Assembly: GCA_024641325.1 (NCBI GenBank)
Contig: JAHEDJ010000002.1
Coordinates: 74,365 to 138,364, forward strand
DNA from: a bacterium
Lineage (GTDB): Bacteria > Actinomycetota > Acidimicrobiia > Spongiisociales > JAHEDJ01
Length of the DNA stretch: 64,000 nucleotides
Reading direction: 5' to 3'
Shown: positions 1,330 to 62,720 of the stretch, piece after piece
Layout of the letters: every line of letters starts with the position of its first letter
Numbering within the stretch: position 1 is the first letter of the stretch
Notes under the pieces: generated by a model
What the model was told of the DNA's origin: nothing
The model's database searches: none
What the model saw: the letters and a program-made list of their open reading frames with translations, nothing else
Position numbers and translations under genes: made by a program

Positions 1330-1357
1330 TCGCGATTCGCAATTCGCGATTCGCAAC
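1330..1357. repeat. Tandem heptamer array TCGCGAT-TCGCAAT-TCGCGAT-TCGCAAC in the panC-lysS spacer.
   Basis: A direct read gives four tandem 7-mers. Related arrays occur at 19602-19622, 53604-53631 (opposite orientation) and 62621-62655. Confidence 0.8.
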
Positions 1358-2977: not shown

Positions 2978-3534
2978 TCCACGGTGGCTCGGCCCCTCAG
3001 CGACTCGATTTCTTCGAGAAGCGATCCGGCCTGACGGTTCTCGCCATTCTGTACCGCCACCAGCGTGAATACGGCTCTCAGGGTCAGGGATTCCAGATGT
3101 TCGGACTCCAGTCGGAGGATCGTGGCCAGGCGATCGAGAAGTGCCGTGACCCCCTCGACCTTGAACTCCCTCAGCACGGCTACATAAGTCAGGTGATCGA
3201 GATGGCCGATTTTGTCGACGCCTCTCAATGTTGCGCTCATCACGGCTTCGAGGTGCTTGTCCAGCCAGCGGTGGTCGTCATCGGCTGAGGTCGGCGGATC
3301 TGGGAGTCCCTCCACCTCGATGAGAAGAATCCCGAACTGGTCCTTTCGTCGGGAAAGCCAGTTCAAGGCCTCCTGGATTGCATCGAGTAGACCGTTCCGA
3401 TTGAGCGTGCCGGATGCAGGGTCGATCGGAGACAGTACGTCCAGTGCAAGCCTTAGGCGGCGGATCTCTTCATCACGTTCGAAGAGCGCCTTTTCGATGT
3501 CTTCGGGTTCGTCGTTGGTGGGGTCAATATCCAT
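2953..3534 (-). CDS. Degenerate GGDEF-domain protein whose GG(D/E)EF motif is replaced by HLDHLT while the RxxD I-site (RGVD) is retained; a likely c-di-GMP binding effector rather than a cyclase.
   Basis: The GGDEF fold signature is visible (LNRNGLLDAIQEAL; ILLIEVEGL in place of the IDLD metal site; RGVDKIGHLDHLTYVAVL in place of RxxD...GGDEF). The ORF track extends to 3708, but that N-terminal extension is Arg/Ser-rich low complexity, so the internal ATG at 3534 (MDIDPTNDEPED...) is preferred. Confidence 0.55.
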   Translation of the reverse strand: MDIDPTNDEPEDIEKALFERDEEIRRLRLALDVLSPIDPASGTLNRNGLLDAIQEALNWLSRRKDQFGILLIEVEGLPDPPTSADDDHRWLDKHLEAVMSATLRGVDKIGHLDHLTYVAVLREFKVEGVTALLDRLATILRLESEHLESLTLRAVFTLVAVQNGENRQAGSLLEEIESLRGRATVDHPIVVEL

Positions 3535-3990
3535 TGGCAAGTCGAGGATAGTGATCACCGGCCGAATTCGTGCCTTATCGATAGCGCAAGCTTGCCGACT
3601 GGAGAGTCGTGCGGGCTCTGAAACGCAGGTTGATGAGGCCGACGACCGAAATCCGTCCCTCCGGGAGACATCAATGAGGATTGCCGAACAATTTCTGTCC
3701 CGGTTCATGGAGCAGGCGACCCTTCAGGCGAAAAGCCGTACCGTTGGTGAACCGGATTGCGCTCCAGCGCCCGGCCCTGATGCCCTTCCACCTCGGGTCA
3801 ACTCTGCTCACTCGGCTGCGCCCGTCGCTGAGCTCCAGAGGCGCACCGCCGCCTATCAGGCGACCGTTGAGGTTCTGTCGAAGTCACTCCAGCCTTCGCT
3901 GGTCGACTTCCTGAGATAACCGACGGGCTTCGCTCGAGCGCATAGTCCGTTGCGCGGCTCGAGGGCGGTTCCTTCGGTGAGATACCGGCC

Positions 3991-4431
3991 CTAGCAGGCT
4001 GCAGCTCGTCCGAAGGCAAGATGGGCTGCTTCCAATCGTTCCCGCGCAAGCCCGACGATCGAAAGCCTCAAGGAATCCACTGAGCGAGTGATCTCGAGCA
4101 GTTCGTCGAGGTCGGCTCTGAGGGCGATTGCCTGCTCGGGGTCTGACCGCTGGATGATGGCGCGGAGCGAGAAGTCGTATTCGGGTTCACCCCACAGGTC
4201 TGCGATCCCGGCGACGACGACGGCTCGGAGCACTTCGTTAGTACCGAGCTGCCGTTCGAGCTTGGCGATCTGCCGGGCCGCCGAAACAAGTGCGAGGTCG
4301 CGTTCGGAAGCAATCAAGGCCGCCATTTCCCCGAGTCTTGCTTCGAGTTCCACTAGAAGCCGGCGTTCACGATTGAGTATCTCCAGCAGGGAGTCGATTC
4401 CGGGCTGCTGGATGAGATTCAGTTCGTTCAC
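3991..4431 (-). CDS. Coiled-coil protein, FlgN-like or anti-sigma-like, lying divergent from the sigma-28 family gene.
   Basis: Predicted all-helical with a heptad-like Leu/Glu/Arg pattern (LLEILNRERRLLVELEARLGEMAAL). A GAGGAG Shine-Dalgarno sits 9 nt upstream of the GTG at 4431; the track start at 4449 is also a GTG. Confidence 0.5.
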   Translation of the reverse strand: MNELNLIQQPGIDSLLEILNRERRLLVELEARLGEMAALIASERDLALVSAARQIAKLERQLGTNEVLRAVVVAGIADLWGEPEYDFSLRAIIQRSDPEQAIALRADLDELLEITRSVDSLRLSIVGLARERLEAAHLAFGRAAAC

Positions 4432-4653
4432 GCGCGATCTCCTCTTCACGGCTCTCGTCTGATGGTTCCCGTCGGCGGGTTCCCGCGTACTTCAAGCCAT
4501 CATTTCGAAGTCCGGGCAAGGTGCATCATGAGAAGTCAAATGGAGCCTGTGCGAATAGGGCTCAAGAGGACCCTCCCGGGGTGCCGATGACAAGTGAAGC
4601 GCTACCAAGTATTCGCAGTTGTCTCCGGAGACAAGTCGAACAGGGACTGGACA

Positions 4654-5484
4654 ATGGCCGCCTTGGATCGAAACCAGCTGGCAGTCGAGCACATCGATCT
4701 CGTAGGTCACATCGTGGCTGAGGTGTCGGTTCGCTACCCACGTCACGTCGACAGGAAAGAATTGTGGAATGCCGGCGCGCTCGGCCTCGTCGAGGCCTCG
4801 AGGCGCTTCAACATCGAGAGCGGAGTTCCATTCGCTCGATACGCCGCCATCCGGATTCGGGGGGCGATCATCGACTCGACGAGATCTCGCGATTGGGCGA
4901 CCCGGTCCGTACGCAGGAATCTTCGTGAGATCCAGCAAGCGACATCGGATCTCGAAGAACGAACCGGCCGCCGTCCTGATGATGATGACCTCGCCGGCGC
5001 GCTGGGCATCACCGTCGCAGAGCTCTTGGACAGGCAAGCGCAGGCGAGTTACAGCACTCTCCTGCACCTAGATCAAGATGACTCGGAAGAGGCGCCGCTT
5101 CGAGACCAGGTAGCCGAAGAGCGCCCGTCGGTTCTCCCCGAGGAAGCACTCGAGAATCGCGAACTTCTGGGTACCCTCAAGGCCGCGATCGGGTTCTTAG
5201 CGCCGGCTCAAGCCGAAGTGGTCAGCCGTTACTACCTGTACGGCGATCTCCTGCAGGATATTGCCGACGATCTAAAGGTGACTGAAGCCCGGGTCTCGCA
5301 GATCCGGGCTGAGGCGCTGGCATCCATGCGGTCGTATTTCGCAACTCTCTACGAGGGCCTGCCGGATGTCGACGATTCTGCACCGGGCAAACGTGCAAGA
5401 GCGGCCTACCTGTCGGTGCTGTCGGAGAACACCACGTGGCGCTCCCGGCTGGAGCAGGATGAGCTTCTAACCACAGGTCCCTAG
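4654..5484 (+). CDS. FliA/WhiG-family (sigma-28 type) RNA polymerase sigma factor.
   Basis: Region 2 reads LWNAGALGLVEASRRFNIESGVPFARYAAIRIRGAIIDSTRSRDW, region 3 reads SVRRNLREIQQATSDLEERTGRRP, and region 4 reads YYLYGDLLQDIADDLKVTEARVSQIRAEALASMR. The start is taken at the internal ATG 4654 (MAALDRNQ...); the upstream Met at 4594 is less likely. Confidence 0.8.
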   Translation: MAALDRNQLAVEHIDLVGHIVAEVSVRYPRHVDRKELWNAGALGLVEASRRFNIESGVPFARYAAIRIRGAIIDSTRSRDWATRSVRRNLREIQQATSDLEERTGRRPDDDDLAGALGITVAELLDRQAQASYSTLLHLDQDDSEEAPLRDQVAEERPSVLPEEALENRELLGTLKAAIGFLAPAQAEVVSRYYLYGDLLQDIADDLKVTEARVSQIRAEALASMRSYFATLYEGLPDVDDSAPGKRARAAYLSVLSENTTWRSRLEQDELLTTGP

Positions 5485-5543
5485 GACTCGTTCCTATGCC
5501 ATCGACGTTTGATGCTTCGGGCCTCTGGTTTGCGGCCTAATGC

Positions 5544-6947
5544 TCAAGGCTCCTGCGTCTTGAACCCGCGACGCTCGAGAGTTCCCCAAGTGTGGTCCCC
5601 ACGCAGAGCCGAGAAGAGTCCGCGAATTCGCCACCAGGTAGCAAGTTGTCGATAGCCCAGGTTCTCGATGAACGCAACCAGTATCAAGCGTCCGAGATCG
5701 CGCGGGCGTGAGTATCGCTGGAACGACAGTTCTTCTAGAGCAACTGCCGCGACCGACAGAGCTACTCCGGCCGCCACCGCGAGGCCGAGGAATGCCAAGA
5801 TGTACGACATTGGAGCGACCCCTGCAATCAGCGCCCACAGAAAGACGACGAAGCCGGATGCCTCGATGAGCGGTCCGATGACCTCGAAAATGCCGTAGTA
5901 GGTGAATCCAATGAGCGCAGGCGGTCCGTAGAGGGGGTTGCCGAACATTTGCCGGTGCCGCCACAGGGTTTGGACCAGGCCGCGTTGCCAGCGGTTTCGC
6001 TGTCTGCCAAGGCTCCCCAAATCCTCCGGTGCTTCGGTCCACGCAACGGGGTCGGGGATGAAGGCGACCCGGTAGTCGATATCGTTCTCCCGGCAATGGC
6101 GGTGGAGTCGGACCACCAGTTCCATGTCCTCCCCGACAGTGTCGGTGGCGAATCCGCCTACGTCGACAACTATGCCTCGTCTAAAGACACCGAAAGCGCC
6201 CGAAATGATCAATGTTGCCCGAAGGACATCCCATCCAACCCGAGCCGCGAGAAACGCCCTGAGATACTCGACGACCTGGAACCGAGCGACCATGTTCTTC
6301 GGCAACAGGACCTGACGGACGATACCTCCGTCGACTACGCAGCCGTTGGCGATGCGCACGATGCCGCCCGCCGCCACGGTGTCGCGGTTCTCCAGGAAAG
6401 GCCGAACGAGGCGCGGGAGGGCTTCAGGTTCGAGCAGCGTGTCGGCGTCCATTGCGCAAAACAGAGGTGTTCTTGCGTAATTGAGACCTGCATTCAAGCT
6501 GTCGGCCTTGCCCCCGTTTTCCTTGCTGACGACCCAGAGGTTTGGATGGCGAGCGGCCCGGTGAACAGTCCTGACGGGCGCGGTGTGCAAATTGGCGCTC
6601 GGTGCACGAGCGGCCGGTTTGAGCTGGAATGCCTCGATCAGGCTGCCGAGGGTTCCGTCCGTAGAACCATCGTCCACGACGACTATTTCGTAGTCGGAGT
6701 ACTGAAGGGTGAGCAGCGAACGAACCGACTCGACGATGCCGGCTTCCTCGTTGAAAGCCGGGACAACGAGGGTGATCGGGACACCTCCGGCTGCGTTCAC
6801 CAGGTCTCCTATGTGTAACGACTTCAGCCTCCCGACGTACTTCTTCAGATCGATGAAGGCCAGAACGCTCGTCGTCATGTAGACGAAGTTCATGGCGAGG
6901 AAATAGACCAGAATCACCAGGCTCACTACGTATACGAGAGTGATCAC
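5544..6947 (-). CDS. Processive family-2 glycosyltransferase of the PgaC/IcaA/NodC/HAS-like membrane synthase type.
   Basis: Has DDGSTDGT, DAD (AMDADT) and QRNRWQRG (QxxRW) motifs, with one N-terminal and several C-terminal transmembrane segments, and overlaps the upstream HEAT gene by 4 bp. Confidence 0.85.
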   Translation of the reverse strand: MITLVYVVSLVILVYFLAMNFVYMTTSVLAFIDLKKYVGRLKSLHIGDLVNAAGGVPITLVVPAFNEEAGIVESVRSLLTLQYSDYEIVVVDDGSTDGTLGSLIEAFQLKPAARAPSANLHTAPVRTVHRAARHPNLWVVSKENGGKADSLNAGLNYARTPLFCAMDADTLLEPEALPRLVRPFLENRDTVAAGGIVRIANGCVVDGGIVRQVLLPKNMVARFQVVEYLRAFLAARVGWDVLRATLIISGAFGVFRRGIVVDVGGFATDTVGEDMELVVRLHRHCRENDIDYRVAFIPDPVAWTEAPEDLGSLGRQRNRWQRGLVQTLWRHRQMFGNPLYGPPALIGFTYYGIFEVIGPLIEASGFVVFLWALIAGVAPMSYILAFLGLAVAAGVALSVAAVALEELSFQRYSRPRDLGRLILVAFIENLGYRQLATWWRIRGLFSALRGDHTWGTLERRGFKTQEP

Positions 6948-15974: not shown

Positions 15975-17179
15975 CCGACGGGGTAGCCCCACCCGGCAAC
16001 GAAAGGCCGGAAGGAGAACCGGGTTGGTACTCTCGAGTGACTGGTGTCGGGAGTTCGATCCGCCAGGCGACCGTTATCCCGGCGCTTGCGCTGGTCAGTG
16101 CCCTCATCATCGGGGCCTTCATCATCGCGGTCACCGACGTCGACACTATCCGTATTTGGGGGGATGATCCCGGCGAGGCTTTCCGGCTGACCTTCAGCGG
16201 GATTGCAGATGCATACAAGGCTCTGTTCGTTGGCTCGTTCGGATCCATCCGGGCGATAACCGAGACGCTCTACGCCGCCACCCCACTGATCTTCGCCGGA
16301 CTGGCGGTTGCCGTCGGCTTCCAGGCCGGTCTCTTCAATATTGGTGCCAACGGTCAGATGCACATCGGTGGTATGGCGGCGCTCTGGGTGGGGTTCAGTA
16401 TCTCAGTCCCTGCGTTCGTCCATATTCCAGTGGCGCTGATGGCTGCAATTGTGGCCGGGGCGATCTGGGGTGGCATCGCCGGGCTCCTCAAGGCGCGGAC
16501 CGGCGCGCATGAGGTCATCACGACCATAATGCTGAACTTCATCGCGCTGTACCTCGTCGACTACTGGCTGAAGTCGTCGGTGTTTCAGCAGCCGGGTCGA
16601 AACGACCCCATTTCCCAACCTGCGGCTGAATCGGCTCAGTTTCCGACGCTTATCGGGAACTACCGGTTGAATATCGGTTTCCTCCTTGCACTGGCTGCGG
16701 TTTGGTTCGTGTGGTGGCTGATGTATCGCTCGACGGTCGGTTATGAGTTCCGCGCCGTCGGTGCCAACCCCAGCGGAGGGAAGTACGCAGGGATGAGTGT
16801 CGCCTGGATCTACGTCTCAGTCATGGCCGTCTCCGGCGGGCTGGGCGGGCTGGCCGGCGCGAATCAGATTCTTGGCCTGGAGCCGTACCGCGGGCTGTCC
16901 AACTTCGCCGGCACGATCGGCTTCGATGCGATCGCACTGGCGCTACTCGGCCGATCGCATCCGATCGGAGTGCTGCTGGCGGGATTGCTCTTTGGTGCGC
17001 TTCGCTCCGGGGGCCGTGAGATGCAAGGCGCAGCAGGCATTCCCATCGATCTTGTATTGGTTGTGCAAGCACTGATCATTGTCTTCATCGCCGCGCCTGC
17101 GCTCGTGCGGGCGATCTACCGAATCAAGGCGCCCGATCAGGACGGCGGTACCACGGTTTCGACGGGGTGGGGCACATGA
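15971..17179 (+). CDS. ABC transporter permease (BMP-associated), first of two.
   Basis: A multi-transmembrane protein whose ATG overlaps the TGA of the ATPase gene. Confidence 0.85.
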   Translation: MTDGVAPPGNERPEGEPGWYSRVTGVGSSIRQATVIPALALVSALIIGAFIIAVTDVDTIRIWGDDPGEAFRLTFSGIADAYKALFVGSFGSIRAITETLYAATPLIFAGLAVAVGFQAGLFNIGANGQMHIGGMAALWVGFSISVPAFVHIPVALMAAIVAGAIWGGIAGLLKARTGAHEVITTIMLNFIALYLVDYWLKSSVFQQPGRNDPISQPAAESAQFPTLIGNYRLNIGFLLALAAVWFVWWLMYRSTVGYEFRAVGANPSGGKYAGMSVAWIYVSVMAVSGGLGGLAGANQILGLEPYRGLSNFAGTIGFDAIALALLGRSHPIGVLLAGLLFGALRSGGREMQGAAGIPIDLVLVVQALIIVFIAAPALVRAIYRIKAPDQDGGTTVSTGWGT

Positions 17180-18453
17180 CCGCCAACGCACCGACAGTGA
17201 CCGCGGAGGTCAAGACGCGCGCTACGCCCGAGGAACGACGGGCGACCGCGATCGGCGTGATCCTCGTGCTGCTCGGCGCGTTCGTGTTCTGGATATTCGG
17301 GCTCGGTGTCGAGTCCGGAGCTCGCTCCAACTTCAACCTCTCGTTGCCCGGCGAGCGATTCGAGAATCTCAGGTGGGAGGTCAGCTCCCAATGGCTGGCC
17401 TTCATCGTCGCGGCGACCCTGGCGTTCCTCGGTGGATTCGTGTTGCGCCGGTCTCAGGTCAAGCGAACCAACCTGGCTCTGGCTATCGGCCTCAGCCTCT
17501 TCGTGCTTGCTTTCCTCACCTGGGCGGCAGCCGATGGGTCATTCAGCCTGGTTGGCATGCTTCGTTCGTCGGTGCTGCTCTCGGTACCGGTTACCTTGGG
17601 AGCACTCAGCGGCTTGATGTGTGAGCGGGTCGCCGTTATCAACATAGCCATCGAGGGCCAGTTACTCACCGCCGCGTTCGTCGGCACGATCATGGGTTCA
17701 GCCTGGGGGATCTGGGCAGGTCTCATTGGGGCAATGCTCACCGGAGCCCTTCTAGGCGCGGTCCTCGCCGTGTTGGCGATTCGCTACCGGATAGACCAGA
17801 TCATCGCGGGAGTGGTCATCAACATCTTCGCCCTGGGGCTCACTTCGTTCCTTGCCCGGCGTGTCCTCTCCGAGGCTCAAGAACTGAATTCTCCCGGTCG
17901 CTTCCCTTCGATCAAGATCCCCGTTCTGGGCGACATACCGGTGGTCGGCTCGCTGCTCTTCAATCACAATATGTTCGTCTATGTGACCTTCCTGTTGGTG
18001 ATCGCCCTCCACTTCGGGTTGTTTTACACGCGGTGGGGCCTGCGATCGCGGTCGGTCGGCGAGCATCCCAAGGCTGCCGACACTGTAGGGATCGATGTGT
18101 ATCGCATCCGCTATCGCAATGTGATCTACGGAGGTTTGATCGCCGGCTTTGGCGGGGCGTTTCTCACACTGGCTCAGGTGTCGCGTTTTGAGGAGAACCT
18201 GACGGCGGGTATCGGATTCATCGGACTCGCCGCCATGATCTTCGGGCGGTGGATGCCGCTGGGAGCTCTCGGCGCAGGATTGGTGTTCGGGTTTGCCCGC
18301 GCCCTACAACAGAAGCTCGGGATCTTGGGAACACCAATTCCTTCGGAGTTCCTCTCGATGACGCCCTACATAGTCACGATCATCGTCGTCGCCGGAGTCG
18401 TCGGTAGGGCCCGCCCACCGGCAGCCGATGGCCAGCCTTATATCAAGGATTAG
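17167..18453 (+). CDS. ABC transporter permease (BMP-associated), second of two.
   Basis: A multi-transmembrane protein that overlaps the previous permease. Confidence 0.85.
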   Translation: MGHMTANAPTVTAEVKTRATPEERRATAIGVILVLLGAFVFWIFGLGVESGARSNFNLSLPGERFENLRWEVSSQWLAFIVAATLAFLGGFVLRRSQVKRTNLALAIGLSLFVLAFLTWAAADGSFSLVGMLRSSVLLSVPVTLGALSGLMCERVAVINIAIEGQLLTAAFVGTIMGSAWGIWAGLIGAMLTGALLGAVLAVLAIRYRIDQIIAGVVINIFALGLTSFLARRVLSEAQELNSPGRFPSIKIPVLGDIPVVGSLLFNHNMFVYVTFLLVIALHFGLFYTRWGLRSRSVGEHPKAADTVGIDVYRIRYRNVIYGGLIAGFGGAFLTLAQVSRFEENLTAGIGFIGLAAMIFGRWMPLGALGAGLVFGFARALQQKLGILGTPIPSEFLSMTPYIVTIIVVAGVVGRARPPAADGQPYIKD

Positions 18454-19426: not shown

Positions 19427-19657
19427 CCAGAGTCCTTCCTTCGTGGGTTATTGTGCCACGCATCGATGGTGCTTTGGGCGATCAGGACCGCTGAAACATG
19501 GAGTCCGGGAGATTTTGTCGGTCTCCTGGTGTTGCTGATCGTCCTTCTTGCGGCTGGTTACTGGCTACGTCGGGCTCGCAACCACAGGGATTGAGCTCCT
19601 CTCGCGATTCGCAAACCGCGCTTCTTTCCTGTCACATGCCGCCGATAAGATCGCCGC

Positions 19658-21021: not shown

Positions 21022-22089
21022 ATGTCTGGCCCCGTCACTCTTCACCAGGTTCTCGAACGCTTGGCACCGGGAACTCCGCTTAGACAAGCCGTCGAGCGCA
21101 CCATCCAGCAGCGAAACGGCGCGCTCGTCATCCTCGGTTTCGATTCGACCGTCGAGGGACTCTGCAGTGGCGGTTTCGAACTCGCCAACTCTGTGTTCAC
21201 CCCTGCCAAGCTCGCCGAACTGGCGAAGATGGACGGGGCAATCGTGATGAACAACGCCGGCGATCAGATACTCCGCGCCAACGTGCACCTCTTGCCGGAT
21301 CCGAAATATGGTACGGATGAGACCGGCGCCCGCCATCGGACTGCCGAACGAACGGCCCAGCACACCGGCAAGCCGGTGCTCAGCGTGAGCGAGGACCGTC
21401 GTACAGCGACCCTGTTCATCGACGGAACGAAGCACGAACTTCTGAGCCCGACTCTGGTGGCCGCCAGTGTCAATCAATCCCTCCAGACTCTCGATCGCTT
21501 CCGGAGACGGCTAGACGACGCAGAAGAGATCCTCACTCGCTCGGAGATTGCGGATCTCGTCACGTTCCGCACGGTTCTCGCGGTGCTGCAGCGATCAGAG
21601 TTGGTCCGAAGGATCGGTCAGGAAATCAAGCAGGACGCGGTTGGCCTTGGCGAAGAGGGAAGTCTGATTTCCCTCCAGATCGCCGATCTGATTCATGGGG
21701 TCGACGAGCTTCGACAGCTCATTCTGGCGGACTATGTTCGCCCTAATCGTCGCAGTCGCGTTCAAGGAGCGCTAAGCGACCTCGAGGCTATCCCGACGGC
21801 AGATCTCACCAGCGCCGAAGCCGTGGCTCAGGCGCTCGGCCTTGATGAGCCGGATAACGAGGCGAAGGCCCGCGGGGTGCGGCTCTTGTCACAGGTTCCC
21901 AGGCTGCCCGACACCGTTCGGACGGCCATAGTCCGGCATTTCCGCAATCTCCAAGGGCTGCTCGCTGCTTCGGCGGCCGATCTCGAGCGAGTGGAAGGTG
22001 TGGGGGCCGCCCGCGCTGAACAGATTCGACAGTTCTTCGATCGGATGCAGGACCGAACACAGATGTGGCAGTCAACCTTCCCCGACTGA
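21022..22089 (+). CDS. disA: DNA integrity scanning protein DisA (diadenylate cyclase).
   Basis: Has DAC-domain motifs (DGAIVM, RHRTAERTAQHTG) and a C-terminal HhH, and follows radA as in Bacillus and Mycobacterium. Confidence 0.9.
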   Translation: MSGPVTLHQVLERLAPGTPLRQAVERTIQQRNGALVILGFDSTVEGLCSGGFELANSVFTPAKLAELAKMDGAIVMNNAGDQILRANVHLLPDPKYGTDETGARHRTAERTAQHTGKPVLSVSEDRRTATLFIDGTKHELLSPTLVAASVNQSLQTLDRFRRRLDDAEEILTRSEIADLVTFRTVLAVLQRSELVRRIGQEIKQDAVGLGEEGSLISLQIADLIHGVDELRQLILADYVRPNRRSRVQGALSDLEAIPTADLTSAEAVAQALGLDEPDNEAKARGVRLLSQVPRLPDTVRTAIVRHFRNLQGLLAASAADLERVEGVGAARAEQIRQFFDRMQDRTQMWQSTFPD

Positions 22090-48972: not shown

Positions 48973-51543
48973 TCAGCCTGTGCGAAGTTGCCGGACAGTG
49001 TTCGAGTACTCCAGTGGTTCGATCATCCGTCTCGGCGCCATCTCGATGGCCTCGTCGATCGACACGGCGGGAGACAGGTAGAACCCCTGGACGTGTCTGC
49101 ATCCGAGTTCTCTCAGCCTCGTGAGCTGTTCACGGGTCTCGACGCCTTCGACGATCGAGCCCAAGCCCAGAGAGTTACCGATGGTCAAGACGGTGCGAAC
49201 CAGTGAGGTCTCTCCCTTTCCGAGTTTCTCTACGAATGAACGGTCGATCTTCACGATATCCAGCGGCAGCCGATCGAGATAACTCAAGGAGGAGTAACCC
49301 GTTCCGAAGTCATCGATGGCGAGATGGATTCCCAGCGACTTCAACTGCTCCAACTTCTGCACCGCGGTGTGCATGACTACGTTCTCGGTGATTTCAAGAG
49401 TGAGGTGATCGGCCGCGAGGCCGCTATCGGCCAGCGCGTGGCGAACTTCGTCGACGATGTCACGTTCGCTGAGTTGCTTTGGAGAGATGTTGACGGCTAC
49501 ACCGGTCGCAGAGCCCGGGTTTGCGAGCTGCCATTTCCTCGCGTCTGTGCATGCCTTTTCGAGGGCCCACCGGCCGAGGCGAACGATGAGCCCCGATTCC
49601 TCGGCATAGGGTATGAACTCGTTCGGTTGGATGGTTCCCAATGCCGGATGGTTCCATCGCATGAGCGCTTCGAAACGCGTGATGGCTCCAGTGGTGGTAT
49701 CGACGATCGGTTGGTAATGCAGCTCCAGTTGGTTCAACTGGAGGGCAGATTGCAGTGACGTCCGGAGCTCGAGAGTCTTAGTCACCTCGTCATGCATTGC
49801 GTCTTCATACTGCCGATAGGTTCCCTTGCCCTGGTGCTTGGCCGCGTACATCGCCGCGTCTGCGTTGCTGAGTAGCTCTCCCGGACCGTCGTCGGGGGTC
49901 GAGAGGGCAATGCCGATGCTGGCCCGGCTCAGGATCTGGTGGCCATCGATGAGGAATGGAAGTTCCAAGGAGTCGATCATGCGGGAGGCAAGTCCGACAG
50001 GAGCGGTGGTGTCTCGTGTTGAAGGGATCAGGATGGCGAACTCGTCACCTCCGATACGGGCAATTGTGTCGTCGCTGCGACACTCGCCTTGCAGTCGCTC
50101 CGCTACGCCGATGAGTAGCTGGTCACCTGCGGCGTGCCCGAGACCGTCGTTGACGCTCTTGAAATCGTCAAGGTCGAGGAACATGACGGCGGCCGAGGCG
50201 CCTTCCTCGAGGTTGCTCAAGGCGTCATTCACACGGGCGGTGAAATTCGCTCGATTGGCGAGGCCGGTCAAGGAGTCATGGAGTGCCTGGTACTTCAGTT
50301 CTTCTTTCAAGATGGTCAAGCTGGCGAGTGAGTCGACGAGTTTGCCGTTTTCCAGCGAGACGGCGACCTGTCGGGCAAAGGTTTCGAGGAGTTTGATGTC
50401 GCGGGGTTTGTAAGAGCTCACATCGTCGAGCTTGTTCGCCACGAGAAGGATGCCTCCGACCGCCTCATCGACGAAAAGCGGTGTGGCGATGCCTTCCCGG
50501 ATGGACGGGCAGTCGCCCATCCGCGTGAACGCCTCATCGTCCTTGTCGAACAACCTGCTGGCACGGGTCGATGCGATCTCATGCCAGACAGGACGTTCGT
50601 GATCGAGCGGAATCAACTTCATCTGGAGTTCCCCGTCGGCCGGCCCGACTCGGGTCCGGTATGCGGCATTGTGGGAGTCGTCGATGAACAGAGTTATCTC
50701 CGCGAACTCCGCAGCAAACATCGCGCGTGCCCGGTCGGCTGCTACCAGCATCGCTTGTTCGATTTCGGGCGTCTGGTGCAGGACTCTCGTCGCGTCGTAG
50801 AGAGACTCGAGGCGTGTGCGTTGTTCGCGCTGGCTCATATAGGCCCGGTAGGAAAGGAAGAGAATGGCAGGCGGTATCATCGCCAGGAAGGCCATCCCTG
50901 GTGCCAATTGGGTCATGGTGACGGCGATCAACGCCAGACTCGAACTCATCAGTGTGGCAAGTGTGCTCAGCCCGATGACTTCGCTGAGCCCGGGCCTGCG
51001 GAAAGACCCGGAAACCAGGAAGATGGCCAGGTTGACGAGGAACATTGCCGTGGTGAGCGCGGCCAGAGCTGCAATGAGCGCTCCTGCCCATCCCGCAATT
51101 CCCAGCGGCTCCCCGAGCCGCGCGATGCTCCGGAACACCACGATGGCCATCCCGAACACAAGTGTGAATTGAGAGACGTTGAAGAGGAGTTTCAAAAGGG
51201 GTTGGCGGCGGTGGATGCTCAGCACGAGCGTCGAGCCGATCAGGACCGAAAGCATCATGTGAGCCGGAGCGAAGAAGAAGAGGCCGAAGATCAGCGGGAT
51301 TTCGCTCATCGAGAAAGAATGAGCGTCGCGTTTCCCGCGGAAATGGACGACCGTGATCTCGCTCAAATATACGGCCGGGATCAAGACCCACCATGGCACG
51401 CTGGGCGCACCCGGCATGACCGCCCAGTCGGAAACGATCATGGCGATCAGCAGGGCGGCAGCTGCGATGGCGGCCGTGAGGAAGAGAACACGTGTCGATC
51501 CGGACCTACGGGTCGATTTGGTGGGGGCTGGTCGTGTCTTCAT
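48973..51543 (-). CDS. Membrane sensor with GAF, GGDEF and EAL domains (diguanylate cyclase/phosphodiesterase).
   Basis: Has an N-terminal polytopic domain, an intact GGDEF (RIGGDEFAIL) and EAL motifs (EALMRW, DDFGTGYSSLSYL). Confidence 0.9.
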   Translation of the reverse strand: MKTRPAPTKSTRRSGSTRVLFLTAAIAAAALLIAMIVSDWAVMPGAPSVPWWVLIPAVYLSEITVVHFRGKRDAHSFSMSEIPLIFGLFFFAPAHMMLSVLIGSTLVLSIHRRQPLLKLLFNVSQFTLVFGMAIVVFRSIARLGEPLGIAGWAGALIAALAALTTAMFLVNLAIFLVSGSFRRPGLSEVIGLSTLATLMSSSLALIAVTMTQLAPGMAFLAMIPPAILFLSYRAYMSQREQRTRLESLYDATRVLHQTPEIEQAMLVAADRARAMFAAEFAEITLFIDDSHNAAYRTRVGPADGELQMKLIPLDHERPVWHEIASTRASRLFDKDDEAFTRMGDCPSIREGIATPLFVDEAVGGILLVANKLDDVSSYKPRDIKLLETFARQVAVSLENGKLVDSLASLTILKEELKYQALHDSLTGLANRANFTARVNDALSNLEEGASAAVMFLDLDDFKSVNDGLGHAAGDQLLIGVAERLQGECRSDDTIARIGGDEFAILIPSTRDTTAPVGLASRMIDSLELPFLIDGHQILSRASIGIALSTPDDGPGELLSNADAAMYAAKHQGKGTYRQYEDAMHDEVTKTLELRTSLQSALQLNQLELHYQPIVDTTTGAITRFEALMRWNHPALGTIQPNEFIPYAEESGLIVRLGRWALEKACTDARKWQLANPGSATGVAVNISPKQLSERDIVDEVRHALADSGLAADHLTLEITENVVMHTAVQKLEQLKSLGIHLAIDDFGTGYSSLSYLDRLPLDIVKIDRSFVEKLGKGETSLVRTVLTIGNSLGLGSIVEGVETREQLTRLRELGCRHVQGFYLSPAVSIDEAIEMAPRRMIEPLEYSNTVRQLRTG

Positions 51544-51555
51544 GGTGACCGCTTC

Positions 51556-53385
51556 TTATCGATCGAGCCAGAGGTTGCCGGACCAGCTGAGGCCGCTCCA
51601 CGATAGGCCCGACCACGACAAGCCGTTCCACCCGTTGGCCCACTCGCCAGTCGACCAGCTGAGGCCACTCCATGAGAGACCGGACCAACTGAGTCCCGAC
51701 CAGCTGAGGCCGCTCCACGAGAGACCCGACCAACTGAGTCCCGACCAATCGGCTCCGGCCCAGTCATTGCCGTTCCAGCTTCCGCCGGACCAGCTGAGGC
51801 CGCTCCACGAGAGACCCGACCACGACAGGCCGTTCCACTCCATACCGAAGATGTCCTGTTCGCCGGTGAGTTCCACCCCGTCGATAGTGACGTGTGAATC
51901 GCCCCTGGCCAGCTCCAGGGAGCCGGTGCCGGTAGACGGTATCCAACTCTGACTCGCTTTGTTAGTCCTGGGTGTTCTCGTCGACGAGGCCCTCTTGAGG
52001 TTAAGGACACCGCCGCCCTGGCATTCGCTCGACACGCCGCGGATCGAAGAGGATCCCGCCACCAGGAGATTCTTCACCTGATCCGGAGTCAGCTCGGGGC
52101 GTTCCTCGATCAGCAAAGCGACGCCGCCCGACACAACCGCGGCAGCCTGAGATGTTCCGCTGCCGCGGAAGAACCGGAAACCTGCAACGGCCTCGGGATG
52201 TGCCTGATCGATAAACGATCCGTAGTCGCGCAAGCTTACGATTGATCGGCCGGGGGCCACCACATCCGTCGTCCTGTTGCCCGTACCGCAGTTGGAGAAG
52301 CTGGGTATCACATCGTCTCGAGGCGTTGCCGTGCCCATGGGATCGACCGCACCGACCGCAATCACAAAGGGGTCGTAGGCCGGATTGCGGACCGGATAGG
52401 AGTTGCCGTCGTTTCCGGTGGCGGCGATTACGACGATGCCGTGGTTCCAGGCCGCCTCGACCGCGTATGCCAGAGGGTCGATGGTGTAGGACTGATTTCC
52501 AGTTGTACCGAACGAGAGGTTGAGGACCCGGATGTTCAGACCGTTGTCGTTGCGATGCTGGACTACCCAGTCGATGCCTGCGATCACCTGGGAAACATCC
52601 ACGGCACCGTTTGAGGCGGCGACCTTGACGTTGACGATGCGGGCGTCGGGCGCCATGCCGAGGAAGAAGTACTGACCGTCGCTGCCGGTGATCGAGGAGG
52701 GAGCTAACTCGTCACGCCCGGCGATGATGCCGGCCATGTGGGTGCCGTGGCCGTATCCGTCCAGGTATCGCATCGACTCGTTCTGTGAATCGAACGACAG
52801 ATCCGGACCGTTGACGACCTTTGCGGGATTCATCAGCCCGTATACCGGAGCTACTCCAGAGTCGATGATTGCGACATCGATCCCGGCTCCGGTATAACCC
52901 TGATCCCACATCCAAGTCGCCATGGTGATCTCGTTTGTCACTTCATACATCGTTCCGTCGCCGACGGGAGGAGCCTCTGAACTCCAGCCACTGTCGACCG
53001 TCTTGAGTTCTGCACTTGCTTCTCCCGTCAGATATCCGGAGTCGCCGGCCAGGCTGGCCAGGGTTACGGGGTAATCCGGGGTCACGGCGGTAACGTCGGG
53101 GTGCAATCTGACGGTGACGAGTTCATTGGCAGGAATCCGTGCCGCGAATCCATCGAAGATGCCGAACTCGTGGGTGATCGTTCCACCCAGCGTTTCGACG
53201 AGGGCCTGGACGGCACCGTTCGATCCGGCGTCTTCGAGGACGATGACTGAGATTATCTCGGAGGCGGCAGGAGGGGAGGCTGCCGCGGCTGGCGCGACGA
53301 TGAGGCTCAGAACAATCAGGAGAATGGCCATCCTCCGGGATTTGCCACCGTCCCAACTCAATCCGATATGCATCATTCCGTCCAT
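51556..53385 (-). CDS. Secreted S8 (subtilisin-like) serine peptidase with a C-terminal Trp-x4 pentapeptide repeat array.
   Basis: Catalytic triad contexts are DSGV, HGTHMAG and GTSQAAA, with a signal peptide and an AGGAG SD 6 nt before the ATG at 53385. The C-terminal 100 aa is a repeat of the form (WSGLS)n. Confidence 0.85.
   Translation of the reverse strand: MDGMMHIGLSWDGGKSRRMAILLIVLSLIVAPAAAASPPAASEIISVIVLEDAGSNGAVQALVETLGGTITHEFGIFDGFAARIPANELVTVRLHPDVTAVTPDYPVTLASLAGDSGYLTGEASAELKTVDSGWSSEAPPVGDGTMYEVTNEITMATWMWDQGYTGAGIDVAIIDSGVAPVYGLMNPAKVVNGPDLSFDSQNESMRYLDGYGHGTHMAGIIAGRDELAPSSITGSDGQYFFLGMAPDARIVNVKVAASNGAVDVSQVIAGIDWVVQHRNDNGLNIRVLNLSFGTTGNQSYTIDPLAYAVEAAWNHGIVVIAATGNDGNSYPVRNPAYDPFVIAVGAVDPMGTATPRDDVIPSFSNCGTGNRTTDVVAPGRSIVSLRDYGSFIDQAHPEAVAGFRFFRGSGTSQAAAVVSGGVALLIEERPELTPDQVKNLLVAGSSSIRGVSSECQGGGVLNLKRASSTRTPRTNKASQSWIPSTGTGSLELARGDSHVTIDGVELTGEQDIFGMEWNGLSWSGLSWSGLSWSGGSWNGNDWAGADWSGLSWSGLSWSGLSWSGLSWSGLSWSGLSWSTGEWANGWNGLSWSGLSWSGLSWSGNLWLDR
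51570..51850. repeat. About 19 tandem 15-bp coding repeats (consensus ccagctgaggccgct in plus orientation) encoding WSGLS pentapeptides.
   Basis: Direct read of the periodic DNA and protein (W every fifth residue). Confidence 0.85.
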
Positions 53386-53758
53386 TGCGGCTCCTGGTTC
53401 CTGTCTTTGTATGGGAGGTATCGACCAAAGGAACCGAGAACTTGGGAACCGTTTGCCAGACGCTCGAGGTAACTAGTTATTTGCCGTCGCCCGGTTTGGC
53501 GATTTGCGAGTGGTATACCCCATCCGTTTTCGCCGGCAGGCGGAAGCATCCAACCCACTGGAATCATCGCTGCGCCGGGGTGGCGTGGCGCAGAGACCGA
53601 TCCGCTTCGAATTGCGAATCGCGAATCGGGTTTCTCCCCTTCCGATTCCGGTTGCCGGCGACCACCTCGCGCCGAAGGCATTAGGGGAGATGTATCCACG
53701 AGAAAGCCGAACCGGAAGCCCGGTTCGGCTTTCACTGGACAACTCTGTCGGTCTGGGA

Positions 53759-54007
53759 CTACGACCAGGACACTCCTCTCATGGAGTACGAACCCGACGG
53801 ATAGATCGGGTAACCACCGGATCCGGTCGGATAGCCCCAGGCGACGACGGCAGTGTCACCGTCCGCCAGCTCCAGGGAATCTGCGGCCTGAGCGTTCGGC
53901 AAGAAGCTGACCACCAGCAGCACCGCCATGGCGACGGCAACGAGGAGGATGGCGATTCGTTTGGACCTACTGTCGTCCCAGGCGATTCCTAAGTTCGGAC
54001 TTTGCAT
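53759..54007 (-). CDS. Small secreted peptide precursor (83 aa) whose leader is paralogous to that of the subtilase.
   Basis: The start at 54007 has a GGGAGAG SD 5 nt upstream. The N-terminus LGIAWDDSRSKRIAILL parallels the subtilase IGLSWDGGKSRRMAILL, with a predicted cleavage after AQA. The mature roughly 45-aa Gly/Tyr/Pro/Ser-rich peptide ends in SWS. Confidence 0.45.
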   Translation of the reverse strand: MQSPNLGIAWDDSRSKRIAILLVAVAMAVLLVVSFLPNAQAADSLELADGDTAVVAWGYPTGSGGYPIYPSGSYSMRGVSWS

Positions 54008-54141
54008 TTGCTCTCCCAGTCTTCGCTTCTGGACTTCATCGGCGCTCATCTCGGGAACTTGGGGACTGTTTCAAGGACGTTCCGAGTAACTAGTCCTTGT
54101 TGGCGGTAGGGGGCGAGCTGCAACGACGCTACGCTGAACTC

Positions 54142-55206
54142 ATGGCAGCTGAAGAAGAACGTATTGCCCTGTTCCTGGACTACGAGAACCTGGCGATTGG
54201 AGCGCGTGACAACCTCGGGGTCACCTTCGACTTGAAGCCGATTGCCGATGCTCTTGCCGAACGCGGCAGAGTGATCGTGCGGAAGGCTTACGGCGATTGG
54301 TCGATGTTCGACGAGGATCGCCGGATGCTCACCCGGAACCACGTGGAACTGATCGAGATCCCCCAGCGGATGGGTGCCTCACGCAAGAACGCGGCCGATA
54401 TCAAGATGGCCGTTGATGCGCTTGAACTCGCTTTCGAGCGCGACTATCTCACAACATTTGTCATCGGCACGGGTGACAGCGATTTCACACCCCTGGTTCA
54501 CAAACTTCGAGAGTTGAACCGGAAGGTGATAGGGGTCGGCATCAAGGACTCGACGAGTGCGCTGCTGCCCCCCGCCTGCGACGAATTCCTGTTCTATGAA
54601 CGACTCGAGGGGGTGGAGGTGCCCGCCGGCGCGCGGCCGGGAGCCCAGCGGCCCCATCGCCGGACGAGCGATCAGCAGGAAGAGCCGAAAATCGAAGTTG
54701 AGGTCAAGGGCCTCGACGACCTCGACAAGCTGGTCACCCAGACACTCTCTGGCCTCCAGCGCTCCGCTCCGGGCGCCGTCCTTGCCTCCTCCCTCAAGCG
54801 GGCATTGATCCGGAAGGATCCGACCTTCAGTGAGGCCGACTTCGGCTTCCGGGCGTTCGGAGAGCTCCTGAGGCATATGGAGAAGCGGAAGGTTGTCGCA
54901 CTGAGCGAAGGTAGCGCAAAGGGTGATCCAGTCGTAGATTTCCGCTCAGGTGACAGCGGTGAAGATGAGGCATTCTCGCTCTTGCTGTCGGTTGTGGCGG
55001 GTTTGGAGACGGCAGACGGTCCACCTGCTCTATCCGGTCTGAAGAACCAGTTGCGAAAGCAGGATTCGAAGTTCACCGAGAAACGGTATGGATTCGGGGG
55101 ATTCCTGCAGTTCTGCAAGGCGGCGCAAGCCCGGGGCCTCATCGAACTCGAGTGGAACGACGCTGCAGACGACTACCTGGTGAGGGTCGCTCTACCGGAT
55201 CGGTAG
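54142..55206 (+). CDS. NYN-domain ribonuclease-like protein with two C-terminal OST-HTH/LOTUS domains.
   Basis: The NYN motif is IALFLDYENL...RKAYGDW...GTGDSDF, followed by two LOTUS-like modules (LKRALIRKDPTFSEADFGFRAFGELL and LKNQLRKQDSKFTEKRYGFGGFLQFCK). Confidence 0.7.
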   Translation: MAAEEERIALFLDYENLAIGARDNLGVTFDLKPIADALAERGRVIVRKAYGDWSMFDEDRRMLTRNHVELIEIPQRMGASRKNAADIKMAVDALELAFERDYLTTFVIGTGDSDFTPLVHKLRELNRKVIGVGIKDSTSALLPPACDEFLFYERLEGVEVPAGARPGAQRPHRRTSDQQEEPKIEVEVKGLDDLDKLVTQTLSGLQRSAPGAVLASSLKRALIRKDPTFSEADFGFRAFGELLRHMEKRKVVALSEGSAKGDPVVDFRSGDSGEDEAFSLLLSVVAGLETADGPPALSGLKNQLRKQDSKFTEKRYGFGGFLQFCKAAQARGLIELEWNDAADDYLVRVALPDR

Positions 55207-62524: not shown

Positions 62525-62720
62525 GCGATGAGCAAGAATGCCCCCGGCCATTGGCCGCCGGCCGGCTGTGACGGCAGTCGTCACGGTTTCGCGCAGACGA
62601 TTCTCGCGCGACAGTCGGATTTCGCGCTTTCGACTTCGCAGTTCGCGATTGTCGTATTCAATGCGGGTGTTGATCGCCGATACATATCCGAAGGTTCGCA
62701 GGCCAGAGGCCAATGGCCCC

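Follow-up and report, generated by a model that had tools for sequence, protein, structure and literature searches.

In the LapD-LapG-LapA system, a receptor of cyclic di-GMP (c-di-GMP) governs a protease of the periplasm whose substrate is a surface protein; LapG, the protease, is a cysteine protease, and LapD contains degenerate GGDEF/EAL domains together with a periplasmic domain. Bacillus subtilis Epr, a member of the SigD regulon, is an S8 protease carrying C-terminal repeats. It cuts Sec-exported pro-Phr proteins to C-terminal pentapeptides, its repeat extension is not needed for catalysis, and it also degrades secreted FlgM (PMC8767453). At the level of transcription, 5 of the 12 WhiG promoters mapped in Rubrobacter radiotolerans sit before genes of diguanylate cyclases or phosphodiesterases (PMC8325347) and, at the level of export, the YSIRK/GXXS signal peptides direct septal secretion (PMC5962339). 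We describe here a locus that can be compared with each of these systems, located in a 64-kb stretch of DNA from a member of the Acidimicrobiia (contig JAHEDJ010000002.1; the whole stretch is called the window). It starts with a small gene at positions 53759 to 54007, encoding a putative secreted mini-protein, followed by the genes of a subtilase and of a membrane GAF-GGDEF-EAL protein. The corresponding features are the following.

53759 to 54007, minus strand: small gene of 82 codons and a stop codon, with start MQSPNLGIAWDD, encoding a pre-protein MQSPN...MRGVSWS
53885 to 54007, minus strand: predicted signal peptide (amino acids 1-41), with G7-I-A-W10-D (53975-53989), the basic residues S-K-R, a 19-residue hydrophobic region and P-N-A-Q-A
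53762 to 53884, minus strand: predicted mature product of 41 amino acids, acidic and rich in Gly, Ser, Tyr and Pro, with a GVSWS end (53762-53776)
51556 to 53385, minus strand: subtilase of 609 amino acids, matching Pfam Peptidase_S8 (PF00082) at 1.8e-40 and Inhibitor_I9 (PF05922) at 1.7e-5
48973 to 51543, minus strand: membrane GAF-GGDEF-EAL protein of 856 amino acids (EAL at 4.8e-76, GGDEF at 3.3e-43, GAF_2 at 6.9e-8 and a weak MASE9 match)

The arrangement is of a known kind, in which an exported peptide is co-regulated with an S8 protease, control is of the sigma-28 type and c-di-GMP enzymes belong to WhiG-like regulons. The explanation that we favour, with a probability of roughly 0.55, is that the small gene is functional and encodes a Sec-exported, probably disordered pro-peptide which is co-regulated with the subtilase and the c-di-GMP enzyme and serves as the extracellular partner of the protease. 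Epr, together with AprE and Vpr, acting on proCSF/PhrC would be the closest working analogy. As in that case, the locus combines an S8 subtilase carrying a repeat tail, sigma-28-like promoters, an 82-residue pro-peptide and an invariant C-terminal pentapeptide. Unlike Epr/Phr, it contains no gene for a Rap/RRNPPA receptor or an Opp transporter, its pentapeptide is invariant with no pherotypes, its neighbour is a GGDEF-EAL gene, and leader and promoter are common to the peptide and the protease. The repeats differ as well, being Trp-containing pentapeptides at the locus and Lys-rich 44-mers in Epr, and processing of the peptide at the locus would be assumed by analogy. No receptor with tetratricopeptide repeats was found among the neighbours (NYN, subtilase, GGDEF-EAL, beta-eliminating lyase and WS/DGAT genes); having no Rap-type receptor, the locus is not a member of the Epr/Phr system. 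Like LapD-LapG-LapA, the locus brings together the genes of a GGDEF-EAL protein in the membrane, of an exported protease and of a candidate exported substrate, but the protease is of the S8 family and there is no homology. Moreover, unlike in LapD, both motifs, GGDEF and EAL, seem intact, which makes an enzyme more likely than a receptor. Finally, a ribosomally synthesised and post-translationally modified peptide (RiPP), or a lanthipeptide similar to SapB/AmfS, was considered and rejected: no genes of modification enzymes lie nearby, the small peptide has no Cys, and its N-terminus is a Sec signal peptide, not a RiPP leader. The morphogenetic role evoked in an earlier interpretation made from the letters of the window (the sequence-only reading) cannot be inferred.

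The reality of the small gene was assessed from its homologues. A search of 5.8 billion proteins retrieved an identical protein and nine relatives of 81 to 87 amino acids, an exhaustive profile search over 1.84 billion representatives yielded only four clusters at 50% identity in addition to two spurious repeat proteins, and a metagenome scan provided four further homologues. There were 17 distinct small-protein sequences, one being 100% identical (P0001) and the 16 others bringing the range of identities to 41-76%. Residues G7, W10, A28 and L31 and the last five residues, GVSWS, are invariant in all 17, and M76, R77, P37, A41 and D43 nearly so. The conservation index reaches 0.90 for the last nine residues versus 0.57 for the remaining mature part. 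The start codon and the Shine-Dalgarno sequence (SD) are kept across the homologues, and the AXA cleavage site in most of them. The ratio of non-synonymous to synonymous substitution rates (dN/dS), calculated pairwise on six small genes, lies between 0.18 and 0.50 for all but one of the 15 pairs; the exception, L006 and L014, which are the closest two, gave 0.79 at a dS of 0.07, a divergence too low to inform. Synonymous codon variation at the invariant Gly and Trp codons shows that the constraint acts on the protein. The 82-codon open reading frame (ORF) is a functional gene under purifying selection, and its product represents a new, narrow and lineage-restricted family in a group of uncultured Acidimicrobiia.

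The full translation of the small ORF reads MQSPNLGIAWDDSRSKRIAILLVAVAMAVLLVVSFLPNAQA up to the predicted cleavage point and ADSLELADGDTAVVAWGYPTGSGGYPIYPSGSYSMRGVSWS beyond it. A longer form of 96 amino acids, starting from the ATG at 54049, is used by no homologue; this ATG falls inside the predicted promoter, if the latter is real, in agreement with the shorter start of the homologues. The SD, GGGAGAG, occupies 54017-54011 and lies 3 nt away from the ATG, or 5 nt when counted from its GGAG core: the sequence-only reading was right about the SD and approximate about a spacing of 5 nt. All the hallmarks of Sec export and of cleavage by signal peptidase I are found by rule (SKR, then IAILLVAVAMAVLLVVSFL, then P-N-A-Q-A|A-D) and are conserved across the small-protein family, consistent with the small secreted protein that had been proposed. 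Cleavage before A42-D43 was deduced from the -3/-1 AXA rule and not by a predictor. The resulting product, with 7 Ser, 7 Gly, 4 Ala, 4 Tyr and 3 Pro, would be the Gly/Tyr/Pro/Ser-rich peptide that had been announced, with a length of 41 residues instead of about 45. AlphaFold2 (AF2), run with the family alignment, gave a mean predicted local distance difference test score (pLDDT) of 58.6, the signal helix being the only confident element: residues 13-34 form a helix with pLDDT about 90 (up to 91), and values drop below 50 at residues 41-74. Such a profile agrees with a signal peptide and, after it, a probably disordered peptide; the mature product is accordingly taken to be an acidic and probably disordered 41-mer. 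Scans of the small protein with Pfam and NCBIfam returned no family match and none to S8 or I9.

The leader links the small gene to the subtilase. BLASTP aligned NLGIAWDDSRSKRIAILLVAVAMAV with HIGLSWDGGKSRRMAILLIVLSLIV, with 10 identities and 21 positives over 25 positions (E 7e-6), the aligned part of the subtilase corresponding to its residues 6-30. At the DNA level, identity blocks between the two 5' regions begin some 90 nt ahead of the start codons and continue through the leader. The two cassettes, made of promoter, 5' untranslated region (5'UTR), SD and signal peptide, are paralogous; the paralogy of the leaders had been claimed before and is confirmed here, together with that of the promoters and 5'UTRs. 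A six-frame scan of the 64-kb window detected the pattern G-[LIVMAFT]-[STA]-W-x followed by a hydrophobic core in two ORFs only, the small gene and the subtilase. The leader had also been described as atypically long and peculiar to this pair, which does not hold: the G-phi-S-W-[DGN] leader is shared by thousands of actinobacterial subtilases, as a trait of the very large family that they form. At least 7987 subtilase homologues were found at E<=1e-10 among the 8000 candidates scored, and in 48 of the best 120 the motif phi-G-[LIVM]-S-W-[DGN]-x-x-K/R stands 7 to 15 residues before the hydrophobic core. Two of these 120 homologues, P0059 and P0098, have two tandem copies of the motif (GVSWDGPRL...GVSWTAPRL) ahead of that core, so that it behaves like a unit that can be repeated.

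This motif of the N-terminal region (n-region) preceding the hydrophobic core matched no curated model in a limited check and has apparently not been described so far. It resembles YSIRK/GXXS, KxYKxGKxW and ESPR in being a short conserved motif placed before the hydrophobic core and absent from the mature product. It differs from that group, known in staphylococci and streptococci and, for ESPR, in autotransporters, by the motif itself, by the phylum and by its occurrence, as observed so far, on one subtilase family and a derived mini-protein only. The YSIRK/GXXS and KxYKxGKxW motifs are absent, and NCBIfam at E<=1 gave nothing for the small protein and protease families only for the subtilase. 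A profile of the 42-residue leader had no match at E<=10 among the 5.8 billion proteins, being too short for a database of this size. Export by the Tat pathway was rejected, the NCBIfam Tat-signal models being unmatched and the RR pair not conserved: RR occurs in the subtilase (SRRMAIL) and in P0132/L022 (TRRIAVL), the position reads KR, QR, KK, RK or RN in the other small proteins, and the subtilase homologues are mostly K-rich or carry a single R.

The subtilase itself is organised into the leader GLSWDGGKSRR, an I9 propeptide, an S8 domain in which the D/H/S triad is present (IIDSG, HGTHMAG and GTSQAAA), a conserved GTGSLE...GEQDIFG linker and about 20 G-L-S-W-S units (approximately 51568-51840). 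Most of its homologues share the repeat tail. Nearly all of the best 120 possess C-terminal G-x-S-W-S arrays (x being A, V, L, M, T, Q, K, N or R), many of them ending with ...G-[LV]-S-W-[DEKRQ]. The Trp of the tail is invariant at every fifth residue, and the linker GTGSLEAARG...GEQDIFG precedes the tail in most members. Source names, available for a few matches only, are those of Acidimicrobiia or Actinomycetota metagenome-assembled genomes (MAGs). The GVSWS end of the small protein is a repeat unit of many subtilases of this family, so that the resemblance to the protease repeats noted for its SWS end amounts to identity with one unit. The mini-protein carries both hallmarks of the subtilase family, the N-terminal motif and the terminal GVSWS, without the protease between them.

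Other relations between these segments were considered. AF2 on the tail alone gave a mean pLDDT of 36 and almost no regular structure; an identity as pentapeptide repeats of the Rfr fold was discarded, since this structure is lacking and no match to PF00805 was found at E<=0.1. One JGI record labels a homologue 'YjbI with pentapeptide repeats', as an annotation only. No paper on the repeat sequences (SWSGASWS and similar) was found in a limited check of the searchable literature. Origin of the small gene by internal deletion, in which the mature peptide would be homologous to an inner segment of the subtilase, was dropped: BLASTP of the mature part against the subtilase paired SLELADGD with SLELARGD at E 0.069 and SYSMRGVS with SSSIRGVS, in an inconsistent order, and a profile-profile comparison paired no more than the last 8 residues. 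A covariation between the variable residue of the N-terminal motif and that of the repeats (the same residue in 12 of 48 cases versus 4.1 expected), though suggestive, was set aside as confounded by phylogeny; the position is always hydrophobic in the N-terminal motif and free in the repeats.

The promoter part of the two cassettes, and the candidate factor that might recognise it, are described by three features.

54036 to 54094, minus strand: cassette of the small gene, with ACTAGTTAC (54086-54094), N23, CCAAGTT (54056-54062), N12 and GCCGATGA (54036-54043), the SD being at 54011-54017
53418 to 53477, minus strand: cassette of the subtilase, with ACTAGTTAC (53469-53477), N23, CCAAGTT, N13 and GTCGATAC (53418-53425)
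4594 to 5484, plus strand: gene of a sigma factor of the FliA/WhiG family, candidate trans-acting factor, matching TIGR02479 FliA_WhiG at 1.4e-49 and the Pfam Sigma70 r2, r3 and r4 domains

The two cassettes of the window have in common ACTAGTYAC-N23-CCAAGTT-N12/13-GYCGATRM. The same architecture was recovered in 12 cassettes distributed over 8 sequences (the window and 7 loci from related contigs), with the general form ACTAGTYA(C)-N21-23-(C/A/G)(C/A)AAGT(T/A)-N12/13-(G/T)(C/T)CGAT(A/G)(A/C/T), followed after about 20-25 nt by an SD of the form CTGGGAG. Variable spacers between fixed boxes are the signature of protein-binding elements. Within the window, ACTAGTYA-N23-CCMAAGTT was found 2 times versus 0.26 expected, and AAGTT-N12/13-GYCGAT 4 times versus 0.09 expected. 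The two additional matches to the latter lie at 49426-49448 (minus strand), on the coding strand inside the GGDEF-EAL coding region, and at 21418-21441 (minus strand), antisense in the DisA gene; either could be a chance occurrence or a promoter of the sigma-28 type, internal or antisense.

Three consensus sequences from the literature can be set beside these cassettes. The sigma-28 -10 consensus is GCCGATAA (PMC12784957), the actinobacterial WhiG consensus is T(A/C)AA-N16-GCCGATAA (PMC12871210), and Escherichia coli FliA sites read TAAAGTTT-N11-GCCGATAA, for example at tar, flgKL beginning with TCAAGT (PMC4183435, Table 2). The -10 elements of the locus, GCCGATGA for the small gene, GTCGATAC for the subtilase and GCCGATAC, GTCGATAA or TCCGATGA in the relatives, match the sigma-28 consensus at 6-7 of 8 positions, with CGA in all. 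The -35 to -10 spacings, N15 for the small gene and N16 for the subtilase, are those expected for sigma-28. In addition, the GTT following the -35 agrees with the extended -35 of E. coli, and the small gene reads CCAAGTTC-N11-GCCGATGA, the 8+11+8 geometry of E. coli FliA promoters such as tar. A scan of the region for promoters of the sigma-70 type found none. From these sequence matches, the cassettes are probably driven by a flagellar-type (FliA/WhiG) sigma factor. For the sigma gene of the window, the best unrelated class, SigB/F/G, reached only 70.6 bits, and no anti-sigma factor of the RsiG type was recognised nearby. Beside it lie a weak FlgN-like ORF (3991-4449, minus strand; PF05130 at 1.2e-4) and, at 2953-3708 on the minus strand, an ORF of 251 amino acids with a faint match to diguanylate cyclases of the SiaD type (E 0.0012). 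As in the WhiG/FliA regulons exemplified by the RsiG-(c-di-GMP)-WhiG circuit of Rubrobacter, promoters that would belong to the TAAA/GCCGATAA class stand by genes of diguanylate cyclases or phosphodiesterases, with a sigma gene in the window. Unlike in Rubrobacter, the -35 reads CCAA/ACAA, an extra ACTAGTYAC box is present about 23 nt upstream, and the putative targets include a secreted protease and a mini-protein. The 2026 survey of WhiG has 0 mentions of the Acidimicrobiia in its main text (PMC12871210).

The spacer between the small gene and the subtilase measures 373 bp (53386-53758) and contains two further elements.

53702 to 53733, minus strand: terminator-like hairpin, 26 nt past the stop codon of the small gene, with the 14-bp stem AAAGCCGAACCGGG/CCCGGTTCGGCTTT
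53608 to 53628, minus strand: three tandem 7-nt units in the TCGCRAT register

The hairpin was flagged by a terminator scan and folds as RNA at -35.8 kcal/mol with a z-score of -5.75, none of 200 shuffled sequences being as good; an equivalent hairpin is kept in L006. It is a plausible terminator of the small gene and suggests that this gene probably has its own transcript, the subtilase-GGDEF/EAL pair forming a second one. The heptamer array had been presented as a property of this spacer. Its three copies are indeed there, but they are not specific to it. Single TCGCRAT heptamers occur at chance frequency in the window (34 versus 31 expected), doublets are over-represented (6 versus 0.28 expected), and the doublets fall in four intergenic places: 1330-1357 (plus), 19602-19615 (plus), 53608-53628 (minus) and 62636-62649 (plus). 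As doublets also occur in three other intergenic regions, a locus-specific operator was rejected; the tandem TCGCRAT is a dispersed short repeat or an operator-like intergenic motif. Four heptamer units lie between panC and lysS. Rfam, applied to 53200-54300, gave only a chance-level match to a vertebrate long non-coding RNA (E 0.14) and no known riboswitch or leader RNA.

Gene order was then compared among the loci carrying the small gene or a subtilase of the same clade. The GAF-GGDEF-EAL gene of the window begins 12 nt past the stop codon of the subtilase, and its translation shows both the GGDEF and the EAL motif. The conserved upstream neighbour is the following.

54142 to 55206, plus strand: divergent NYN gene (Pfam NYN at 4.8e-32) with a faint OST-HTH match

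Three orders were observed. The first, NYN<- ->small ->subtilase ->GGDEF/EAL, exists only in the genome of the window, whose contig is also seen in SRR12825369/425/427/429. The second, NYN<- ->subtilase ->[cassette] small ->(13-80 nt) GGDEF/EAL, is that of L017, L020, L021, L010 and L011, two of which are partial, L010 ending inside the small gene and L011 after the subtilase. The third lacks the subtilase, NYN<- ->small ->(290-410 nt, second cassette) GGDEF/EAL, and is found in L005 (MAG Ww199), L006/L007, L015 and L022. In L005, L006, L015, L017 (with a gap of 13 nt), L018, L019, L020, L021 and L022, the gene that comes directly after the small gene is GGDEF-EAL; it is the constant neighbour in the relatives, and only the window has a subtilase between the two. 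Of the 9 informative loci, 5 (the window, L010, L017, L020 and L021) have a same-clade subtilase, 76-79% identical, next to the small gene, on either side, and the small gene is present with no subtilase at the locus in four others (L005, L006, L015 and L022). Thus, the peptide-protease pair that had been suggested is borne out as far as the adjacency in five loci is concerned, but the constant partner is the GAF-GGDEF-EAL protein and not the protease. The subtilase cassette of the window is closest to the cassettes preceding GGDEF-EAL in L005, L006, L015 and L022. L006 and L015 retain, before GGDEF-EAL, a short vestige resembling the 3' repeat of a subtilase; this vestige hints, without more than suggestive force, at a derivation of the third order from the first by deletion of the subtilase. 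The NYN gene, a putative RNase, is always upstream of the module, and a beta-eliminating lyase comes after it. In L005, L006, L010, L011, L014, L015 and L022 the NYN gene is 90-98% identical, the small protein in these loci being 42-71% identical.

No conserved small partner gene was found near distant members of the subtilase family (L012 and L013). Locus L012 (JGI Ga0376077_0001142) contains, at 5170-6210, upstream of the tandem subtilases P0084 and P0025, a paralogous copy of their 5' region. The stretch also includes a called ORF of 46 amino acids, MRRRAANIKDRIRDRILGAAITLSVLGMGLFLFMLCRPAPTGVSWS, which ends in a GVSWS repeat unit, and a frameshifted remnant with the leader GISWDDRKGR and the propeptide start IGRIVSVIVR; this locus shows that partial 5' duplications recur in the subtilase family. 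The same contig carries a Peptidase_M73/signal-peptidase S26 cluster (TasA/SipW-like) 3-7 kb upstream. Right before the small gene of L016 (ENA ERZ23499046 scaffold_178824), an ORF at 2-346 ends with ALLLDERPGLSPDHVKKILTSSA, matching subtilase residues 423-445 (E 3e-5); the rest of it has no Pfam match, and it may be a truncated or rearranged subtilase. Finally, L013 (ENA ERZ25039603 contig_23858) has FliM/FliN genes and a response-regulator pair at 16494-17821; a subtilase of this family is encoded about 7 kb away, and at least some carriers of the family are therefore flagellated.

On this basis, the favoured explanation can be formulated step by step. The cassette of the small gene would most likely have arisen when part of the 5' end of a same-clade subtilase gene was duplicated, after which both copies were kept under selection. 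A sigma factor of the FliA/WhiG type would switch on the small gene and the subtilase-GGDEF/EAL operon together. The pre-protein would be exported by Sec and cleaved after AQA, giving the 41-residue peptide. Its invariant C-terminus, (M)RGVSWS-COOH, which repeats exactly one unit of the (G-x-S-W-S)n tails of the subtilase family, may be the part that is recognised or released. The peptide would then be either a substrate from which the protease releases the C-terminal peptide, or a ligand using the same docking unit, and would act in one pathway with the membrane GAF-GGDEF-EAL enzyme, with a link to c-di-GMP output. Several observations weigh against this explanation. The four loci that keep the small gene with no subtilase imply that the protease is dispensable in cis. 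AF2 gave no confident structure for the repeat tail, which makes docking a speculation, and hhalign paired only the eight residues sMRGVSWS with the SxxGxSWS repeat of the subtilase, at a probability of 6%. On the regulatory side, the -35 reads CCAA, ACAA or GAAA and is off the T(A/C)AA consensus at its first base; the two promoters of the window have 2-3 mismatches to the 12-nt consensus and fail the strict search rule of PMC12871210; and the sigma gene scores 168.9 bits against TIGR02479, slightly under the curated cut-off of 189.6. Furthermore, the sensor of the GGDEF-EAL protein has short extracytoplasmic loops only, with no obvious peptide receptor.

The constancy of the GGDEF-EAL neighbour raises another possibility, namely that the small protein is an exported modulator or signal of this enzyme, the leader being a historical trace and the adjacency of the subtilase incidental. 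The small gene is directly upstream of GGDEF-EAL in every relative showing the downstream side, gaps down to 13 nt (L017) imply co-transcription, no subtilase exists at L005, L006, L015 and L022, and the window alone has an intervening one. Against this stand the same-clade subtilase adjacent on either side in 5 of 9 informative loci, the presence of the same promoter cassette before the subtilase, the identity of GVSWS with the subtilase repeat unit and, here again, a sensor domain exposing only short loops outside; we regard this alternative as unlikely. Less probable still, and in our opinion clearly unlikely, is that the G-phi-S-W-D leader is an envelope targeting signal and the mini-protein a small surface or structural component, its Trp-containing C-terminal unit serving as a wall anchor. 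It would explain why an n-region motif that is removed occurs nonetheless on two unrelated mature proteins and in 40% of the best 120 subtilase homologues; YSIRK/GXXS and septal secretion offer a precedent (PMC5962339), and Trp-rich tails recur on these exported proteases. Yet the motif is borne by subtilases and the mini-protein only, in the window and about 100 kb of related loci, which looks like common descent, one unit of five residues is a weak anchor, and no YSIRK, KxYKxGKxW or Tat model was matched.

The same conserved n-region could also be accounted for by a single-pass membrane mini-protein that remains uncleaved and whose cytoplasmic G-x-x-W-D works, for instance, on the GGDEF-EAL protein or on the secretion machinery. 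The hydrophobic segment of 19-20 residues forms one confident helix, G7 and W10 are invariant though they would be lost on cleavage, and P0131 and L021 have no clean AXA site (APISSPADS). We nevertheless judge such a signal anchor very unlikely, because P-x-A-Q-A|A/G-D is a near-ideal signal peptidase I site kept in most members, the subtilase bearing the same leader must be released for its I9 and S8 domains to fold outside, and the invariant C-terminus implies that the exported part matters too. Finally, the sequence-only reading had considered a remnant of a duplicated subtilase N-terminus, in other words a subtilase 5' end that was duplicated, then decayed and is no longer functional. Such debris does exist in the family, as illustrated by the remnants of L012 and by the S8-like end of the L016 ORF. 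However, the dN/dS range of 0.18-0.50, the conservation of start, SD, cleavage site and C-terminus in the 17 sequences down to 41% identity, and the retention of the gene in the four subtilase-less loci lead us to reject a decaying fragment, which is scarcely credible. It had also been proposed that a full-length subtilase at this position in relatives would make the small gene a pseudogene. L010 and L011 do have one, next to the NYN gene, but in L010 it is closely followed by the small gene, and that conclusion fails.

Returning to the explanation in which the peptide is the extracellular partner of the protease, a more specific variant can be drawn, although we hold it to be quite improbable. 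(R)GVSWS would be an extracellular signal freed by the subtilase from the 41-mer, and possibly from its own tail, which would then behave as a polyprotein; feedback on GGDEF-EAL would close a loop between peptide, c-di-GMP and sigma factor. This variant would presuppose that all three genes have promoters of the sigma-28/WhiG type and that WhiG is gated by c-di-GMP, as it is in Actinomycetota. As a further twist, the cytoplasm-facing G-x-x-W-D of the cleaved signal peptide might be released as an intracellular reporter of secretion.

Should the product prove to be only a co-regulated surface protein, the present results would make an ordinary, well-documented note on a gene family. If the favoured explanation is true, a new secreted mini-protein would have been born by recycling the promoter and the signal peptide of a protease gene, and then kept. 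An n-region motif conserved in the part that is discarded would then call for an explanation, whether in targeting, quality control or signalling. The locus would constitute a compact module of the Acidimicrobiia in which a promoter of the sigma-28/WhiG type, an exported protease and an exported peptide are linked with a c-di-GMP enzyme, and would extend the recently described diversification of WhiG regulons to a class with little genetics. If, in addition, the C-terminal pentapeptide is a signal, the interest of the locus would rise sharply, as it would represent a new type of circuit for cell-cell communication or for sensing the state of the envelope in Actinomycetota.

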